Shown here: piece by piece, positions 10,937 through 61,048 of the stretch
Layout: every line of letters starts with the position of its first letter
Position numbering within the stretch: the stretch's first letter is position 1
Assembly: GCA_000004985.1 (NCBI GenBank)
Contig: GG738866.1
Origin: Naegleria gruberi
Taxonomy: Eukaryota
Reading direction: 5' to 3' (one strand)
DNA length: 64,000 nt
Position numbers and translations under genes: made by a program
Notes under the pieces: model-generated
The model's database searches: none
Told to the model about the DNA's origin: nothing
What the model saw: only the letters and a program-made list of their open reading frames with translations

Positions 10937-12378
10937 ATGCAACCACACCAATCCTCTTCTCCATCCTCTACCAACACGATGAACAAGGAGAATGAACATT
11001 TTCACTTTCCAACCATGCCTTCCAAGACGCGATCATCTAAAACATCATCACCAACCAACAGCAATACATCACCAACCTCTCAACAAGCCAAACTAAAATC
11101 TGGTCAAAAAGTTTTTCCTTTCCATGTGGCTTATGGTATTTCCCCATCACCATCATTATCAACATCATCAAATACACAAAAACCAAGTGGTATTCCTAAA
11201 GTTGTGCACAATAAGAAGATTTTCAGCACTCCAAGCTCTGCTAAAAGTACCCAAAGAAAAGCTCTGGGCACTTTGAGTAATCAAAAATCTAATCAACTCT
11301 CCAATCTGCAAAATATGCATGCCAACATTACCATTACTCCACCAGAAAAGTTTACTCCTCATCCACCATCACAACCAAGAATTGTTGAAGAAACAAATGA
11401 AATGGTTGATGACGTAGCTGTTGATTCACATACTGTTACTAAGGAAGTTCCAGATGCTGAAATGAAGACTACAGAGTCAACCACTGAACAAACTCAATCT
11501 ACTACAACACAGGAATCATCAACTGGGGCTAAGAAATCTACATGGAAACTCCAAGATTTTGAAATTGGAAACTATCTTGGAAAGGGTAAATTTGGACAAG
11601 TATACCTTGCAAGAGAAAAGAGAACAAAATATATTGTAGCATTAAAGGTTCTAGATAAAGAACAATTAAAGAGAGAAGGTGTAGAACATCAAATCAGAAG
11701 AGAAATTGAAATTCAATCCCATCTCAGACACAAGAACATTTTGAGATTATATGGCTATTTCTATGATAGGCAAAAGGTATATTTGATTTTGGAATACGCA
11801 GCTGGAGGTGAATTATACAAACAATTACAAGAATGTAAACGTTTTTCTGAACCAGAAGCAGCTAGATACATTACAGGACTTGCCAAAGCTCTCAAATATT
11901 GTCATGACAGAAATGTCATTCACCGTGATAGTAAGTTTTCAATATTTCCAAGCAAAACAATTAACAAATACTAGTCAAACCTGAGAATTTATTGATGGAC
12001 TCAAATCATGATGTAAAAATTGCTGATTTTGGTTGGAGTGTTCATGCACCAACCACAAGAAGAACAACACTTTGTGGAACTTTGGATTATTTACCTCCTG
12101 AAATGGTTGAAGGAAGAGAACATGATTCAACAGTTGACTTGTGGTGTTTGGGAGTATTGTGTTATGAATTCTTAGTTGGTGAACCACCATTCATGGCTCC
12201 AACACAAGAAGAAACATTTAAGAAAATTAAGGATGTTGATTTACGATTCCCACCTTTCGTTTCTATTGATGCTCAAGATTTAATCAGTAGATTACTTGTC
12301 AAGGATACTTTGCAAAGAATGTCATTGACAGAATTATTTGAACATCCGTGGATTGTTAATAATTGCCCCGCCCAATAA
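10937..12378 (+). CDS. Aurora-family Ser/Thr kinase. Exons are 10937..11930 and 11975..12378, with a 44-nt intron (11931..11974).
   Basis: The kinase domain reads [14 protein letters not shown]...HRD|IKPENLL...DFGWSVH...[10 protein letters not shown], rebuilt across a GTAAGT...ACTAG intron (phase 1). The activation loop and C-terminal region are Aurora-like. The N-terminus is an S/T/P-rich extension. Confidence 0.85.
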
Positions 12379-21095: not shown

Positions 21096-24000
21096 ATGAG
21101 TGATGGTGATAGCCCTTCCCGAAGACTCAATGCCTTTGGTGGCTCTTCTCCATTAGAAAATGATCAATTCGATGATTTGGATGATACAACAAGGAAAAAC
21201 AAATGGGATATGAAGAGAAATAATGGAGGTGGAGGCGGTTTTAGTATTCCATCTTTGAATGAAGTAGGTTTTGTGCTTATATTGTTGATAGTTAAAAAAC
21301 AATAGTCGATAGTAATTCCTTCGATACCGTCGTTGGGAACAATACAACCAACAATATCTAAAAACATTACTAGCATAAATTCCATGCCAGCAAGTGGTTT
21401 TAAAATTCCCAATAATACAAACATCAACTTTAATGCTACTAAGGAGCCGCCAAACAAAGAATACAGCGAGTATTTGGCAAAGCTACAACAAAGGAATAGA
21501 GAGAAAAAGAGAATGGAGGATGATCCAAGAAAAAGGGAACTTGAGGAAAAAGAAAGAGGATTTAATTTAAATTGGAGTGGAGCTAATAATAACAAAAAAG
21601 ATAAAACTTTGAAGACTACTACATCAAATGAGGACTTTACCGAACCCACTACAAAAATTAAAATCAGAAGAAGCAGACCAACCGGCTACGCGGACAGAAA
21701 CCAAATAAAAAGTGAAGAGAAACGTGGTTGGAAACAATCAACAATAGCTATGAAGAAGGAAAATGGAGAAATGGAACGAATAACACCAGAAAAACCTAGT
21801 ATGTTTGAAGGCGATGATGAGCAAGAGGATGCCTCAGAAATACTCTTCAGAAAGAAAACGAGAGTCACACTCAACAAGGACGACATTGAAGCTCTCAGAA
21901 AGAGCCTAAGTTCTTTAGATTGTCCTAATGAAGAGAGTTTAGCTCATTTATCGACAATGGATACCTTAATTGAAAAATTGAAAAGACTGGACCAATCCAA
22001 ACAGAAATATTTGCTAAAGGTATTAGAAAAATTGGAACAGACAGATAAAACTGTCGAATTAGATGTTTCAGAGGACGAAGAAACTCCTAAAAAAACTGTT
22101 CAAACACCTTCAAAACAGCAAAATGATACATACTGCATAAGAATTTTAAGCACTTGGGGACATTCTAGTAACGTTGGTCTTACTGAAATAGAACTTTATT
22201 CTTTTGATGAAACAAAAATCGAGATTGTGGATGATCAAGTGAATCTTAAGGGTGGACTTGGTGGAAAAGGAAACATTATGCGATTATTCAATGGAAAGAA
22301 AAAGACCACAAACGACCAAAACATGTGGCAAACCTCTTTCCCTACTTTAAGTTATTTAGAAATATTTATAACAATTCCAAGCTTTCTTCCAGTAACAAAT
22401 ATCATTGTTTGGAACTTTAACAAGAGTATTAATGTAAGTAACAATTGTTATTAGGTGATTTCTGACTCGAAAAAGGAAAGTGTTAAAGGAGTGAGAGAAG
22501 TTGAAATCCTTAGAAATGATGACCAGGTATGGAAAGGAACTATACAAAGAGGAAATGGAAATAATGCCTTTGATTACTCAACATCTATTCAAGTTATGAG
22601 TCCAGAAGAAATGCAAGCAAAAAGATCTTCATTTAAACCACAAAAAATTGAAATTGTGCAAGTGTCACCAATCCCAAAGAAAGAATTCTCACCAGAACCT
22701 TCCAACAGTGGTAATGCTATCTCCAGTAAAATGGCTCTTTACGATAGTGAAGAAAGCGAAGAAAGCGAGGAGTCTTCGGAAGAGGAAGATGTTACTTCTT
22801 ACACTTTAGAAATTGAGGATGATGATGACTTACTCAAGCTCACAGAAGATAGGAGATCAAGCCCTCCAACCGTTCCACCACTCTCTATTTCTTTAAGAGA
22901 AGAAACACCAAAGAAGGTTGAAGAGCCTCAAAAGCCATTACATCTTGTTCCAGATGGCCCTAAAGAACAAAAGGATCCAATATGGCTTTCATTGACAAAA
23001 AATCAGAAAACACCAAAAGGAAATGTTCTTACTGATGCCCTTAAGAACACGAACCCAGAGAAGTTACCTGTGTGGTTTAGAGAACTGGAGAAAGAGCCAA
23101 CCCAGGAAAAACCAAGAAAGGTTGCTGATATTGATCTAGAAAAGAAAGAAGAGCCTCCAAAAGAATCTCCAAAAGAAGTTTTAAAAACATCTAGATCAAG
23201 AAGCAGTATCGAACAAAAGCCAACTCTTCAAACTGAAAAAAGTGTTGATTCATTACCTATCGTTACTATTGAATCTGGAAGAAAGCAACCTTCGAGATCC
23301 AAGAGCAGACCAAAGAGACCTCAAGTAATATATAATCAATCTGGTTACACTGACAAATCTTCTATTACAAACGAAACTTTTGACTCCTTAATGAAATTCA
23401 AATATTCTCATTTGGGTCGTCTTAAGCCAAGAGATGAAGAATCAAGCTCTTCTAATGAACCTACAGAAATCAAACCTCCAGTTTGGAAGATTGAAAGAAG
23501 GAAAAGCAGTCAAAAACTTATTACTAAGGATGAAGATTTAATATCGCTCCCTGCTTTAGCTCTTTCAAAAGAAAAACAACAACAACCTGAAGTTGACATT
23601 ATAGAGGAAGAAGAAGACATGGACTTCTTCATTCCAATTTATCCATCTGGTACAAAACTTGTAATCAATATTAAGGAAAGTTGGGGAGATCCCCACTATC
23701 TTGGATTGTCAGGTATAGAAATTTTCGATAAGAATGGTAACTTGCTAGTTCTAAATGATGTTTTCGCGCAAGTGAGGGCAAATCCTTCTGATATTAATAG
23801 CCTGCCAAATATTTCAAACGATCCAAGAACAATTGATAAGGTTTTCGATGGTGTGAACATGACATGTGATGATTTCCACCAGTGGTTGACACCATTTACT
23901 CCAGGAGGAGACCACTTTATATATGTTACCTTAAATGAAAGGACTACAATATCTATGATCAGATTTTGGAATTACAACAAATCAAGAATCCACTCTTATA

Positions 24001-39000: not shown

Positions 39001-40299
39001 CTTGCTGCAGCAAACACTGATGCTTGCTTTAGAAGTGGTGATTTTTTCGCTAATTGTGGACTTTCCTCATCCAATTCATTGAGATCATCACCAAAACAGT
39101 CATCCTTTCTCATATCCCATTTTGGATCCACATTATGTCTCACAAATGATGAAGCAAGAAGTCTATTTGAATGAAAAACACTTTGTGCTCTCTTCAGTGG
39201 AGGTGGTTGAAAACCAGCATGAACACTTTGTCCTCTATTTCTATTATATCCACCACTATAAGAACTGTTATTTTGTGTAGCACTAATCGGTGAGAAATTT
39301 CCAGTGTATGATGAACTGATCTGTGGTTGAAATACTCCAGAGTAATTACTACTTCCAGAACTTCCAGAACTGTTTCCTTCATTATTGTGAGTCATACTTA
39401 AATGTGATATTGTAATAGCACTTGTTGATTGATATGGATTCACTGGTGTTGTTGGTGTGGGTGATTGATTTTGTGACATCTTTGGTAATTGAACCAAAGG
39501 AAAGTTGTATCCAAGTAAATTATTTAAAGAAGTGCTGTGTCCTCTATTTCTCGAAGGTAAACTTTTAATACTATTCAATCAATTAGTGTTAAACAAATTA
39601 ATTAAATACATACGCGAAATCAGAATAATTATGATATAATACAGTTGGTGATATTGGTGGTGATTGTTGTGGTGGTACTGCTCGTTTAGCTACTTGTGAC
39701 TTATTTTGTGGAGTGGCATCATTGGTGGTCGTGTTTTGTTGTTGTGTTTGTGGTTGAGTATGGGTAGTATCAATTTGGGGAAGTGATTTCGCCTTCTTAT
39801 CTAAAGGCTTTTGTTGATTATTTTCGTTTTTAGGTGATTTTGGTGTTTCTTGTTGCTGCTGACTTGTTGTGTTGTTGTTATTATTATTATTATTATTAAC
39901 ATTGTTTGATGGTAAGAGTTGTATATGTGTTGGAGACATTTCACATTCCTCCGATATACTTGATAAGAGTCCTGATTCATCAATGGAATTTAATGATGAG
40001 AAGAAGGAAACTCTCTTTGATGAAGATCTCCACAAACGAGTGTTGTTATTATTATTGGTTGAAGTTGTTGTTTCTGGTTGAAGATTGGATGATGACATTG
40101 ATGAAGAAGGAGAGGATATCCTATTATTATTTGGGGTAGTAGTAGTCATGGAAGAAGAGGAGGAACAAGCCTGCTGTTGTTGTTGTTGTTGTCTATTATT
40201 CTCTTCTCGGGTGGTGGTAGTGGTGTTTGCAGAATTTGATGAAGTAGTAGAAGAAGGAGAGGAGGCTTGTTGTTGGTATGAAGGAGGTTGCTGTTGCAT
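36042..40299 (-). CDS. MAST-family AGC Ser/Thr kinase. Exons are 39614..40299 and 36042..39570, with a 43-nt intron (39571..39613). Exon 1 is rich in Asn and Gln.
   Basis: The kinase domain reads FEIIKPISRGAYGRVYLARKK...HRDLKPDNMLI...DFGLSEIGVL, followed by a roughly 30-aa insert and then GTPDYLAPE and INWVDE, all MAST-like. An upstream DUF1908-like region is present. The intron reads GTATGT...GAATAG (phase 2) and joins ...YSDFA to IKSLPSRNRG. Confidence 0.75.
39878..39898. repeat. (TTA)n microsatellite, which encodes a poly-Asn run on the minus strand inside MAST exon 1.
   Basis: The repeat ttattattattattattatta is flanked by (tgt)n. Confidence 0.6.
40174..40191. repeat. (TTG)n microsatellite, which encodes a poly-Gln run as (CAA)n on the minus strand inside MAST exon 1.
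   Basis: The repeat is tgttgttgttgttgttgt. Confidence 0.6.
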
Positions 40300-40963: not shown

Positions 40964-41921
40964 ATGTCTAATTCTCCAAAGCCTTCTTCATCAACTCCTC
41001 CAGGCTATGATCAGCAAGCAGCTTCTACCACATCAGCTTCATTAGTCAAAGTGGAATACAACAATGAACATAAATATGCACTCATTACATTACAACATAA
41101 ACCTGTAAATTCATTCACTTTGGAAATGATGAATGCAATGATTAGTGCTATTGATGAGGTGGAGAAGAATTCTCAAATGAATGCCATTGTATTTACTTCA
41201 GGAATTTCTAATATATTCTCTGCAGGGTTGGATTTAAAAACTTTTAGAACTGATTCAAAGGATAAAATTGCCAACTATTGGTTTAAATTACAAGAATTCT
41301 TTCTCAAGATTTATGGTTGTACATTATTCACTTGTGCTGTAATTAATGGTCAATGTTTTGCAGGTGGTTGCTTGTTTGCATTGTGTTGTGATTATAGAAT
41401 TATTCATACTAATTATTTAATTGGATTGAATGAAGCGTAAGTTGTCAATTTTTAATAATTCAATTGATTTAAGATTCAATTAGTCAATTTGGTAAGTTGT
41501 TAAAATTTTTATAAATTTACATATCTTTATAGGTCTTGTTGCTCCTTGGTGGTTTGCTCAAGCTTATGAGAATGTCATTGGAAAGAGACAATGTGAAATG
41601 CATATTCAATTAGGTACCTTACATAAAGCATCGAGTGCTCTTTCCATTGGACTCGTCGATGAAGTTCATGATAAATTTGAAACAATGAAAGAGTCAGCCC
41701 TTATTCATGTGAAGAAATGGAATAAGGTCAACCAATTTGCAAAGAGAGAATCAAAAAAGATTTTAAGAAGAGACTTATATGAAAAATTGAATTCCACTCG
41801 TGAGCAAGATGTTCAACTATCTGCCTCTTTAATTAGTTCTCCAAGAGTTCAAAAACTTCTTGCTGAATATTTACAAAGTTTACAAAAGAATTCAAGCTCT
41901 AATAGACCTTCAAAATTATAA
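40964..41921 (+). CDS. Enoyl-CoA delta-isomerase of the ECI/crotonase superfamily with a C-terminal SKL (PTS1) signal. Exons are 40964..41435, an 8-nt micro-exon at 41484..41491, and 41533..41921.
   Basis: The protein aligns with mammalian ECI1 and fungal Eci1 (ISNIFSAGLDL, AVINGQCFAGGCLFALCCDYRI, GLNEA|QF|GLVAPWWFAQ). The C-terminus is ...RPSKL*. Introns are 41436..41483 and 41492..41532, and both start GTAAGTTGT. Confidence 0.75.
41484..41491 (+). other. 8-nt micro-exon (TCAATTTG) of the ECI gene.
   Basis: This is the only way to join exon 1 (phase 2) to exon 3 in frame. It supplies A-Q-F-G, matching the conserved NETQLG block. Confidence 0.55.
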
Positions 41922-42989
41922 ATTTAAATCCCAACATCTCAGTGCCTCCTCATCACTTCCACAATAAAGATATTTATCCTTACTAACACAAAGTGAAAAT
42001 ACTTGCATTGAAAGTCTTTCAATTGTTCTTAATAATTTGACACTCTTATTTGATGCATCGAGAGAATATTGACAAATAGTTCCATCTATTGATCCACTGT
42101 AAACATGTGATCCAATAACTTGGCAAGATGTAACCTTATCAGAGTGTTCACTTAATGAAATAATTGGTTCACTATTTTCTACTGAAAATATTTTTACATG
42201 ATTCGAATTATCTCCACTCACTAAAATATCATTTTCCACACTCAAGCAAGTAATATCTGAATAGTGACTATTATATCTTTTCTCAATTGTGTATGAATGA
42301 TCATCATTCAATGAAAGTGCTTGTAATGAACCATTTGTAGATCCAACAAATATTACAGATTTATCCTTAATTTTTCCAACATGACAACAAAATGGTGTGC
42401 CAAAATTGGTTGAAATTGAATTAATTTTACAATGTTCCGTACTATCCATTATATGAGATCCAAATGAACTGGTATTTCCTCCAAAAGATGATCCACTCAT
42501 AATATCAAAACTATAACTAGATACATTACTATGGTTATTGGTAGATGAATCATCAGAACCAAGTTTCCTAATATCCCAAACATTTAATTTAGAATCTTGA
42601 CCAACACTGTAAATTAAATAATCATTTGAAAAATCATTTAAATCACTCCAACATGTTAAATCATTCACTCCAGAAACATGTTGTAATTTACCAACACACT
42701 CCGATCCAACTCCATTTCTTGAATCCCATAGTCTAATAGAGTGATCAGCACCTCCAGATATTATTAAATTATTTCGGAGAACAGTTAGGCAGGAAACAGT
42801 TGAATCATGACCAATTAAAATTCTATCACAAACTCCTTGATTAACGTTCCATGTTCGAACTGTGTGATCATTTGATCCAGTAATTGCTTGATTGGTGAAT
42901 GGACAAACTTTCACAACACGAATAAAATCCTGATGACCATAAAGAAGCGCTTTAATTTTAATATTGGAATTGTTTTGTAACCAAGACAT
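41916..42989 (-). CDS. WD40-repeat protein of unassigned family.
   Basis: The ORF is 357 aa with at least five WD-like repeats (ITGSNDHTVRTWN, IISGGADHSIRLWD, YSVGQDSKLNVWD, LVSGDNSNHVKIF, YSGSIDGTICQY). Confidence 0.55.
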   Translation of the reverse strand: MSWLQNNSNIKIKALLYGHQDFIRVVKVCPFTNQAITGSNDHTVRTWNVNQGVCDRILIGHDSTVSCLTVLRNNLIISGGADHSIRLWDSRNGVGSECVGKLQHVSGVNDLTCWSDLNDFSNDYLIYSVGQDSKLNVWDIRKLGSDDSSTNNHSNVSSYSFDIMSGSSFGGNTSSFGSHIMDSTEHCKINSISTNFGTPFCCHVGKIKDKSVIFVGSTNGSLQALSLNDDHSYTIEKRYNSHYSDITCLSVENDILVSGDNSNHVKIFSVENSEPIISLSEHSDKVTSCQVIGSHVYSGSIDGTICQYSLDASNKSVKLLRTIERLSMQVFSLCVSKDKYLYCGSDEEALRCWDLNL

Positions 42990-43096: not shown

Positions 43097-44029
43097 TTAG
43101 AAAATGATAGTGTTAAGCATCATACCAAGAGTTTGGTTGACGTTAGAGCCCATCAAAGTTTCAACACTGTTTTCCAAGTGTCTCTTGGAGTCTAATTTAC
43201 CAACATTGGCTAATTGATATTCTTCTCTAGAGGACTTTCCTTCTTCTTGAACCATCTTGTTATAAGTCTTTGCTAATTGAACCATACTCTTAATTGTCTT
43301 TTCAGTTTCCTTTTCATGTTCGTGGAAATCAACTAATTTCAAACCTTCAGTCCAAGTCTTTTTGTGAACGTGTAATAACATTTCTTGTTCCAATTCATTC
43401 TTACGATAAGAAATTGGCATTGAGTAATAGTGACGATTCAAACCGTGAATCAAAGCTTGTATAGTTGGCTTATTCAAATGACCTTGGACACTTGTTGATT
43501 GACGTGGTTCTTGACCAAACATGGCCAATTGTGGATTAATAGTACGGAAAGCATCGATAACAACCTTACCCTTCACTGATTGAATAGGGTCAACAACTAC
43601 AGCTACCGATCGTTTAGTAAGGGATTCAAATGACTGTTGTGTATTAATATCGACACTACTCAACCAACATCCAAAACCAGGGTGAGAGTGATACCATCCG
43701 ACAACCATTTCTGGTCTTCCTGTTTGTTTCAATAATTCCAACATTTTAGTTTGAAAGACTGGATCAACAGCTTCGACACTGACACCAGTACCGCTTTGTG
43801 GCATGGCGAAAACATCAATACAACGAACTGTATAATCATCAATAAATTCTCCCAACATTAAACCCATGACTTCCATAGGAACACCAGCACGACCGTGTTT
43901 TAACATTTTAAGGAGAGCCAAACTACTAATTGTAACTGTTTCAGCTGTATCGGGAAGAGGTTGATCACCTTGCATACCTCCTCCACCACCCATTTGTTGC
44001 ATAATAAGTCTTTGCAAACGTGGATCCAT
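43097..44029 (-). CDS. RPN11: 26S proteasome lid deubiquitinase RPN11 (PSMD14/POH1).
   Basis: The MPN+/JAMM motif is present ([10 protein letters not shown]...[23 protein letters not shown]). The protein is collinear with Rpn11 over about 300 aa. Confidence 0.85.
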
Positions 44030-58384: not shown

Positions 58385-61048
58385 CTACTGTATTGAAAAG
58401 AAATGTCTCACCGACTCAAAAACACTCTGCAGCTGTTCTTTTCTGTAAGAGGATTTCTTGGTTAAGCCATCAAGTACACCAACTCTTACAACAGCCTTAA
58501 CTGTATCAGAACATTCAGGGCATGAACAAGGATAACCATTTGATTCATCTCGAATAGTATTCCAACATTTTGAACAATAGGTGTGACTACATGGTACCAA
58601 TAAACATGGATCTTCATATAATTGGAAGCAATGAGTACATGTAAGTGATGAAACAGTTGCTTCCTCTGCTTTGATTAACTTTTCTATCGTTGCTTGGAGA
58701 TACTTTTGATTCTTATTTACATTTTCAATCATTTGTTGTTCACGTATGATTTGACCTTCATATAGAGATTTGTTATCCATTATTTCTTGTCTCAATTTAG
58801 AATTGTCAGCATTAAGGTTGGAGATTGTTGTTAAAAGTTGAGAATTCGTAGAATTCAATTCCCTCCATATTGTCTTTTCCTTTTCTATTTCAATTGCAAT
58901 TGCTTCATCCTTTTCCTTCAACTCCTTCTCTCTCTTTTGAATGGTTTCATTCAATTCAGAAATTGAACAGTCTCTATTTTTGAGGTTTTCTTCGAGTTCA
59001 ACAATTTTCTTGGATTGTTCCTCATTCTTTCTTTCAGCTTCATTCAACTTTGTTGTTGCAATATCCAGTTTTTGTAAAGATTCCTCATTTTCTTCCCTAG
59101 CTTTCATTAATTCAGAATATAAATGGTCACCATGATCTCTCTTAGATAGTGCTTGAACCTTTGTATTAAGGTCCAAATTCTCCTGTTGAAGTTTTGTTAA
59201 CTGTTGGAATAATTGCCTGAAAAATATTAACTTGGAAATAATCAAATATTGAAAACTTACTCTTTCTCTCCCATGGCTGATTCCAATCTCTTCTTTTGTG
59301 CTGATATGATATCAAGCTGTTTGTGTAAATCAAGATTTTCAATGGTCAAATCCTTGATTTGTTTTTCCAAAGTTGATTCCTTCTTTTCGTTTAATGAAGT
59401 CTTTAGAACATTTAATTCCTCTTCTAACTTTTTAACAATGACTACATAGTTTTCAATTTCATCTAGAAGATTTGTTACTTGGTTCTTTGACTTTTTCTCA
59501 GAGTTTTCACAATCTCTAACATAATTCTTAAGATCAGTTATTTGATTTTTAAGATCATTCACAGTTCGTATGGACTCTTTGGATTTAGCTTCTAATTGTT
59601 TAACATTGGCATCTTGATCCTCAATAATTTCCGTTTGTTCTTTAATTTTTTCGTTGAGTTCTCTTTGTTTTATCTCCAATTGATAAACTCTATCTTTATA
59701 TTCCGAACTGTCTGATTCTTTCTTTTGCATACTTTGTTGCATGGTTGAAATGTTTCGCTCTCGGTCCCTTTTTTAATTCTTTTAGCACATTTTTTTTCAA
59801 ATTTGAGAAAAACTTACTTTAGTCTTGCTTCCAGTTTCAAAATTTCAAGTCTTTTTTCCTCAAGTTCTACTTGAGATGAAGCATGTTTATCTTGCAAATT
59901 CCTAAATTATTTAGTATTTTGTAAAGTTAAGAACTACTTACTTCATTTCAATTTTGGAATCATTCAATTGTTTTAAAAAGTCAAGACTTCTTGTTTCATT
60001 ATCTCTTCTCAATGAATCCAAATCATTGATAAGACTTTTGATTTTAGAATTTAATTCAAAAACTGAAGATCTCAAAGAAGAATTCTCTTCTTCTAAATCA
60101 GCTTTCAAAGCTTCAACTTCTTTTCTTTTAATTATTAATTTAAACTTGAAAATACTGTTCAACCTACAAGCTTGTGAAAACATTTGTAAATTTTTCTTCC
60201 AATTCATGAAAAACTGTTTTTGGTACACTTGTGATTACTGTTTGTTTTAGAGTACAATTTTCATCCTTAATCCTATCCAAGTCACTTTTATATGTTTCGG
60301 ATTTGTTTTTCTCGCCTAAAATATTTAATTATTTCAATCAAAGATACTTACTTCTATACATGGATGATAATTGTTCAAAATTTCGTTGAATTTGTTCCAA
60401 AGAACCATTGCTCTTCTCAATTTCTGCCTGTTGGTCCATCACTTTTTGTTTTAATCTCTCAATGAACTCTTGATCCTCTTTCATTAATAAATTGTGTTTT
60501 CTTTCCCTTTCATTTTGAGACTTGTTAGACCTGCCAACTGAAATGTCAGGCAGAGTAATATGTGACGATCTTGGTGATGATTCGGTTGAAGCTGATGGAG
60601 TATTAGCCGAAGAAGAAGAAGTATTATTGCTTAGAAATCCACTATTAGATTTGGAATTGTTTTGTGTATTGATATTCCTAGTAGAGACTGGAATAAATCC
60701 CAAATCATTTATATTTACATTGGTATCATTATTTGGTGAGGTAACATTAATTGTAGTTCTAGGTTGTTGTTGCTGTTGATTTGATGGAAAATCGTGATGG
60801 ATTGTATTATTATTTGATCCCATAGGAGGGCTCTTATCCAACAATGCTGTTGTTGAGAAGGAAGATAAATTAGCTAGTTTGGGTGCTCTTCTTGATGATG
60901 ATGAAGATCCAGGCTTTTTCCTGATAGGAACAAAACTATCTCTACACGATGATGAAGAACCATTATTGTTTGAAGATGATAACCCAGTGGTTGCAATAGC
61001 CGAGTTCGACCTTAGTTCTCCCTTTCCAAAGCTATTGAATGAACTCAT
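58385..61048 (-). CDS. Coiled-coil protein with a C-terminal C3HC4 RING finger, a candidate E3 ligase of BRE1/RNF type. Its six exons are 60352..61048, 60168..60315, 59942..60124, 59818..59901, 59251..59767 and 58385..59216.
   Basis: All five introns (36, 43, 40, 50 and 34 nt) start GTAAGT or GTAGGT and close in frame. The RING reads CTHCFQLYEDPCLLVPCSHTYCSKCWNTIRDESNGYPCSCPEC. Heptad-rich Glu/Lys/Leu sequence runs throughout. Confidence 0.65.

Follow-up and report, generated by a model that had tools for sequence, protein, structure and literature searches.

A predicted 8-nt coding micro-exon between two short introns in a PTS1-bearing enoyl-CoA isomerase gene of Naegleria gruberi

The ECI gene and its predicted product

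The stretch of DNA analysed here (64,000 nucleotides, hereafter the window) comes from Naegleria gruberi NEG-M and carries on its plus strand, at 40964-41921, the gene NAEGRDRAFT_33361, a predicted enoyl-CoA isomerase (ECI) gene laid out in three exons (Table 1). Two intron-free open reading frames (ORFs) adjoin it on the opposite strand, and their products, an Rpn11/MPN protein and a WD40 protein, match the N. gruberi proteins EFC44908.1 and EFC44907.1, respectively, exactly (469,335-bp scaffold). These matches dismiss a dictyostelid origin, which the AT-rich sequence and its poly-Q/N tracts might suggest. At 32.8%, the GC content of the window is in line with the published value of 33% for N. 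gruberi NEG-M (PMC8296547). A poly-Q/N/T-rich ORF on the minus strand (39598-40299) lies upstream of the ECI gene and is apparently exon 1 of a considerably larger gene: a 43-nt intron at 39571-39613 (minus strand; GTATGT...AATAG) connects it with an open frame that runs for over 1,100 codons.

Table 1. Predicted layout of the ECI gene and the ORFs adjoining it (positions in the window)
Feature	Position	Strand	Length	Content
Exon 1	40964-41436	+	473 nt	ATG to GC, the first two bases of Ala158
Intron 1	41437-41483	+	47 nt	Phase 2; GTAAGTTGTCAATTTTTAATAATTCAATTGATTTAAGATTCAATTAG; AG ends at 41483
Micro-exon	41484-41491	+	8 nt	TCAATTTG
Intron 2	41492-41532	+	41 nt	Phase 1; GTAAGTTGTTAAAATTTTTATAAATTTACATATCTTTATAG; AG ends at 41532
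Exon 3	41533-41921	+	389 nt	GT of Gly161 to ...NRPSKL; TAA stop at 41919-41921
WD40 protein ORF	41919-42989	-		Intron-free
Rpn11/MPN protein ORF	43100-44029	-		Intron-free

The last full codon of exon 1 is the GAA at 41432-41434, which encodes Glu157, the predicted catalytic base. The micro-exon then supplies the third base of Ala158, the whole of Gln159 and Phe160, and the first base of Gly161. It is set in a canonical splice context, with an AG directly upstream and a GT directly downstream (TTAG/TCAATTTG/GTAAGT), such that the predicted spliced junction reads GAAGC-TCAATTTG-GTCTTG and the peptide across it NEAQFGLVAPWW. The spliced coding sequence is an 870-nt ORF specifying 289 amino acids (...GLNEAQFGLVAPWW...RPSKL, followed by the stop). 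The first-pass annotation of this DNA had intron 1 start at 41436, which is one base early, as its initial GTAAGTTGT starts at 41437.

By its sequence relationships the product is an ECI1-type delta3,delta2-enoyl-CoA isomerase of the crotonase superfamily, with the corresponding activity predicted. The Pfam domain ECH_1 (PF00378) is recovered across residues 39-278 with 165.4 bits against a gathering cut-off of 27, and the best relatives with solved structures are human ECI1 (1sg4; E = 1.3e-50) and rat ECI1 (1xx4; 8.2e-49), with the next crotonase at 1e-18. These values place the protein with the monofunctional ECI1 enzymes rather than with the hydratases and bear out the identity assigned at first pass. 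Alignment to ECI homologues, which had been proposed there as a check on the gene model, is ungapped at the micro-exon junction in human and rat ECI1 (1sg4, 1xx4) as well as in intron-free heterolobosean homologues. In this alignment Glu157 falls on position 136 of the human chain 1sg4_A, and Glu136 is the catalytic base of human ECI1 (PMC9541288).

The residues encoded at the junction belong to a conserved block. The micro-exon is needed both for the reading frame and for the Ala-Gln-Phe-Gly of the NE-x-x-x-G motif that directly follows the catalytic Glu codon. Within this block, an alignment of seven sequences shows no variation at E157 or G161, the four heterolobosean proteins all share F160 and G161, and an exact NEAQFG is present in 10 of 105 homologues. 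The match of the rebuilt NEAQFGLVAP to the conserved crotonase block, recognised at first pass from the letters alone, is recovered in the alignments with human and rat ECI1 and with the heterolobosean proteins, and in a profile of 105 homologues. The junction reads IGLNEAQFGLVAPWWF, and the same residues are found in an intron-free heterolobosean homologue (L002); it is likewise uninterrupted in N. lovaniensis, N. fowleri, the loci L039 and L024, and 29 other eukaryotic metagenome loci.

The protein ends in SKL directly before the TAA (...RPSKL), as had been pointed out, which is a PTS1-type tripeptide fitting the pattern (S/A/C)-(K/R/H)-(L/M). The same tripeptide terminates the N. lovaniensis protein, the N. 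gruberi paralogue and the L002 protein, and is absent from more distant homologues. Naegleria has peroxisomes (PMC9512073), and the supplement of the same study gives SKL, PKL/SKL and SKL for this enzyme in what are apparently three Naegleria columns. Inspected by eye, the Naegleria protein has no Arg-rich N-terminal presequence. Taken together, the SKL end and the lack of such a presequence lead us to predict a peroxisomal rather than a mitochondrial location, and the gene is one more member of the set predicted for peroxisomal beta-oxidation in Naegleria.

Splice solutions at the micro-exon

An exact-sequence look-up showed the spliced 289-aa product to be identical to EFC44815.1 / XP_002677559.1 (NAEGRDRAFT_33361; UniRef100_D2VEL7), a protein from the 2010 JGI annotation of NEG-M whose sequence is wholly the same throughout. 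The records call it a hypothetical or uncharacterized protein, or in UniRef 'Enoyl-CoA delta isomerase 1, mitochondrial', and leave the micro-exon unmentioned. The micro-exon is thus already contained in the public 2010 annotation, and the ECI and PTS1 readings are already known. The expectation of the first-pass annotation that such an exon would be missed by gene callers does not hold here, since the public N. gruberi annotation holds exactly this ECI product.

We enumerated every GT/GC..AG combination, with one or two introns, in the interval 41400-41600. Thirty of these combinations leave the ORF open, one of them with a single intron of 151 nt (41437-41587), and the deposited protein EFC44815.1 is produced by the micro-exon join only. 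We also looked for one canonical intron able to restore the frame with LVAPWW retained, and none is found among the enumerated combinations. To score the products, a profile hidden Markov model was built from 105 independent homologues, with the N. gruberi protein left out. The 8-nt micro-exon model obtains 332.3 bits against 317.8 bits for the best other two-intron variant, 287.4 bits for the micro-exon with an alternative 3' splice site and 265.4 bits for the single 151-nt intron. The micro-exon had been put forward as the only in-frame solution: as a statement about frame this fails, given the 30 combinations that keep the ORF open, but the micro-exon alone keeps every conserved residue and yields the best profile score.

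With its product identical to EFC44815.1 and its score the highest among the rival splice models, the 8-nt gene model offered at first pass stands. We regard it as highly probable that two U2-type GT-AG introns lie 8 nt apart in NAEGRDRAFT_33361 and that TCAATTTG is a true coding micro-exon of this PTS1-bearing ECI gene. Its inclusion in the mRNA is suggested by the conservation of the residues and by the existing annotation, which may itself be homology-driven. An RNA-seq dataset for N. gruberi exists (PRJEB23822), and the record of the deposited protein names neither a Logan nor an RNA-derived source. Were 41437-41532 instead to be taken out as one piece, the frame would shift and a stop would follow after 12 codons (...GLNEASCCSLVVCSSL and stop), giving a truncated product; skipping of the micro-exon would therefore be unproductive.

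An independent metagenome contig, L034 (ENA ERZ929261, contig k127_194510; 611 nt), corresponds to 41393-41990 of the window at 99.2% identity (5 differences over 598 aligned bases). It carries both introns, all four splice sites, the identical micro-exon and an identical intron 2, with a T to G change at 41476 in intron 1 as the sole intronic difference. The recurrence of the same introns, splice sites and micro-exon in an independent assembly rules out a sequencing or assembly error as their source. The contig also indicates a close relative of N. gruberi in the ERZ929261 sample.

The two annotation routes differ in what they retrieved: the homology-aware eukaryotic annotation caught the micro-exon, and the metagenome pipeline, with its prokaryote-style caller, returned for L034 a 107-aa ORF starting MHIQLG only. 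This 107-aa fragment is the representative of its 90% cluster, and as such it hid the full-length GenBank protein from the homologue search.

Short introns of the window and the question of a common origin

Twelve further introns of the window were inferred from long open frames that could be joined at donor-like sites (U2-type GT[A/G]NG[T/A]). All of these are 40-52 nt long with 19-32% GC, and they mostly start with GTAAGT. The ECI introns, with 47 and 41 nt, are typical for the window, and a single intron of 96 or 151 nt would not be. The published mean intron length for N. gruberi, 203 bp, averages over the whole annotation and is compatible with a short mode. A search of the window for other micro-exons, by paired donors enclosing phase-compatible exons of 24 nt or less, gave formal candidates only, none of which is needed for an ORF. 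One such case, at 22434-22526 (plus strand), has formally two donors and a 15-nt exon, GAAAGTGTTAAAGGA, and a single 42-nt intron there already keeps the ORF open.

The first-pass annotation had described the two ECI introns as near-identical and had taken their common start to suggest an intron duplication. They do start alike, with GTAAGTTGT at 41437 and again at 41492; the identity, however, is confined to these first 9 nt (14/17 over the first 17), after which the sequences diverge. In the 64-kb window this 9-mer is found three times against 0.62 expected, two of the three being the ECI donors, 55 nt apart, and plain GTAAGT is present at chance frequency (23 against 24.5 expected). That the introns arose by duplication or propagation, be it through reverse splicing of a neighbour or through two introner-like insertions, and that the micro-exon is no more than the 8 nt left between two insertion sites, is in our view unlikely. 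Such a scenario concerns the origin of the introns only and is compatible with the micro-exon gene model.

The shared GTAAGTTGT and the 14/17 match speak for duplication, as does the distribution of introns among relatives: N. fowleri, N. lovaniensis and three heterolobosean-like contigs lack an intron at the site. Against it, the similarity of intron 1 to intron 2 is no greater than that among unrelated introns of the window. When the 14 introns are compared in all 91 pairs, the ECI pair ranks second with a score of 43 (interior shuffles, p = 0.14), below the 45 obtained by ECI intron 1 with an unrelated intron at 59260. T is common at intron positions +7 (9/14) and +9 (8/14), and, going by such positional counts, chance alone should give the same first 9 nt in an estimated 9% or so of GTAAGT intron pairs. 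Moreover, neither terminal inverted repeats nor convincing target-site duplications were found at the two ECI introns. Direct repeats at the boundaries (AAGTTGTCAATTT and AATTAGTCAATTT, 11/13), considered as a signature of intron gain, are too short and AT-rich to interpret.

A further observation on the side of propagation comes from elsewhere in the window. Two inferred 44-nt introns, at 11931-11974 (plus strand) and 59260-59217 (minus strand), are identical over their first 17 nt, GTAAGTTTTCAATATTT, and both carry TTCCAAG after a 7-nt indel, even as they sit in unrelated genes, namely a protein kinase split at HRD/IKPEN and a coiled-coil protein. The ECI introns match this 17-mer at 15/17 and 14/17 positions, and within the 64 kb it has 7 matches with at most 3 mismatches against 1.6 expected. 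Propagation of introns may have left these shared 17 nt, or they may reflect an extended 5' splice-site consensus. The more specific proposal that a family of approximately 44-nt introns propagates in this genome (introner-like or by reverse splicing), that the ECI introns are two independent insertions 8 nt apart, and that the 11931/59260 pair is its first trace, we hold to be somewhat more doubtful still than duplication or propagation at large.

The ECI genes of N. lovaniensis (L001) and N. fowleri (L038), along with the fowleri-like L039 and the heterolobosean L002, are wholly intron-free, and the L024 homologue is uninterrupted at the micro-exon site. The ECI1 genes of a starfish (Patiria miniata; L035, 13426-14707) and a leech (Helobdella robusta; L036, from 4550) each have a phase-0 intron directly before the invariant Gly codon, a position exactly 1 nt upstream of the phase-1 intron 2 of N. 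gruberi. Given this proximity, intron 2 could go back to an old intron whose position has shifted by one base, or it could have been gained in parallel at a G/G site, and its possible antiquity weighs against duplication. For intron 1, none of the homologues examined has a counterpart.

Another scaffold of N. gruberi carries a second ECI1-type paralogue (P0003; EFC41453.1), with 302 aa, 54% identity and an SKL end, and one such ECI gene each was recovered for N. fowleri and N. lovaniensis. The two N. gruberi paralogues cluster weakly in a neighbour-joining tree, and the immediate neighbours of the ECI gene differ between species; one-to-one orthology is therefore uncertain. Given the paralogue, the NAEGRDRAFT_33361 copy could in principle be dispensable. 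A full-text literature search on introners or micro-exons in Naegleria returned passing co-mentions only, with no listed title or abstract addressing either.

Competing gene models, the proposed order of splicing and known systems

Two readings would do away with the micro-exon itself. In the first, one intron at 41437-41587 (151 nt, GTAAGT..AG) yields a 268-aa protein without QFGLVAPWWFAQAYENVIGKR, and the 8-nt exon is an artefact of annotation. It is a formally valid in-frame GT-AG solution that uses the same strong donor. It would nevertheless delete 21 residues, among which G161, V163, P165, F168, G177 and R179 are invariant in seven homologues; it lies 67 bits below the micro-exon model, and its intron has about three times the typical length in the window. 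It would also leave as an unexplained coincidence the perfect succession of an AG, 8 nt and GTAAGT, encoding exactly the conserved Gln-Phe. We accord this reading a very low probability.

The second sees in the locus an assembly error or a paralogue that has been frameshifted and is decaying, with a single 96-nt intron (41437-41532) removed to give a truncated product. The presence of the second paralogue in N. gruberi would be in keeping with decay, as would the frameshift and early stop that the 96-nt excision brings about. Yet the independent assembly from the related strain, L034, has the same sequence, and its four exonic differences comprise two synonymous and two conservative changes (E to D, K to R). 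No damage is seen in the ORF, in the catalytic Glu or in the PTS1, and by a rough estimate of our own, made outside any program, the probability that 8 nt encoding conserved residues in phase would fall by chance between an AG and GTAAGT is well below 1e-6. This reading, too, is highly improbable. A ciliate-type code or read-through of the TAA after GCG was dismissed, as the standard code is used in the ORFs nearby and the window derives from N. gruberi.

Returning to the micro-exon model, we propose how its two introns might be spliced. With introns of about 44 nt, recognition would probably take place across the intron (intron definition), such that each is spliced as a self-contained unit. 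An 8-nt exon would be too short for a 3' splice-site complex and a U1-bound 5' splice site (-3 to +6) together. Since both complexes could not be held on it at once, intron 1 and intron 2 would most likely be removed one after the other, in either order. A special RNA structure that joins the splice sites was also considered; with a fold z-score of -0.48 the pre-mRNA segment is unremarkable. The locus leaves current understanding unchanged and its value is modest; it offers a clean and well-supported case of a coding exon of 8 nt in an excavate protist whose introns are near-minimal, and hence a possible test case for intron-definition spliceosomes.

As an enzyme, the Naegleria protein resembles the human and rat mitochondrial ECI1 in the catalytic residue (Glu136/Glu157) and in the ungapped junction, and differs from them by its SKL end. 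As a gene, it departs from animal ECI1 (starfish, leech), where a single phase-0 intron precedes the Gly codon, in having two introns that flank 8 nt.

Coding micro-exons are known from other eukaryotes, such as the mini-exon of 9 nt in potato invertase and, in plants and animals, micro-exons of 1-15 nt. Like these, the predicted ECI exon is internal, lies far below the footprint of a splice complex, has canonical splice sites and keeps the frame when included. It differs in that its flanking introns (41 and 47 nt) are near-minimal, as is the norm in the N. gruberi genome. With such introns being the norm, recognition across the intron is likely to operate here rather than enhancer-dependent exon definition.

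The introner-like elements and intron families of Micromonas, fungi and others show two of the features seen at the ECI locus, namely a shared 5' sequence that extends beyond the splice consensus and homologues that are intron-free at the site. Unlike those elements, the ECI introns are 41-47 nt long, have neither terminal inverted repeats nor target-site duplications, and in the comparison within 64 kb are no more similar to one another than background. Finally, stwintrons and the zero-length exons of recursive splicing also have two donors within about 100 nt and, as would probably hold for the ECI introns, are removed stepwise. In contrast to stwintrons and ratchet sites, the 8 nt of the ECI gene are predicted to stay in the mRNA and neither intron interrupts the splice signals of the other.
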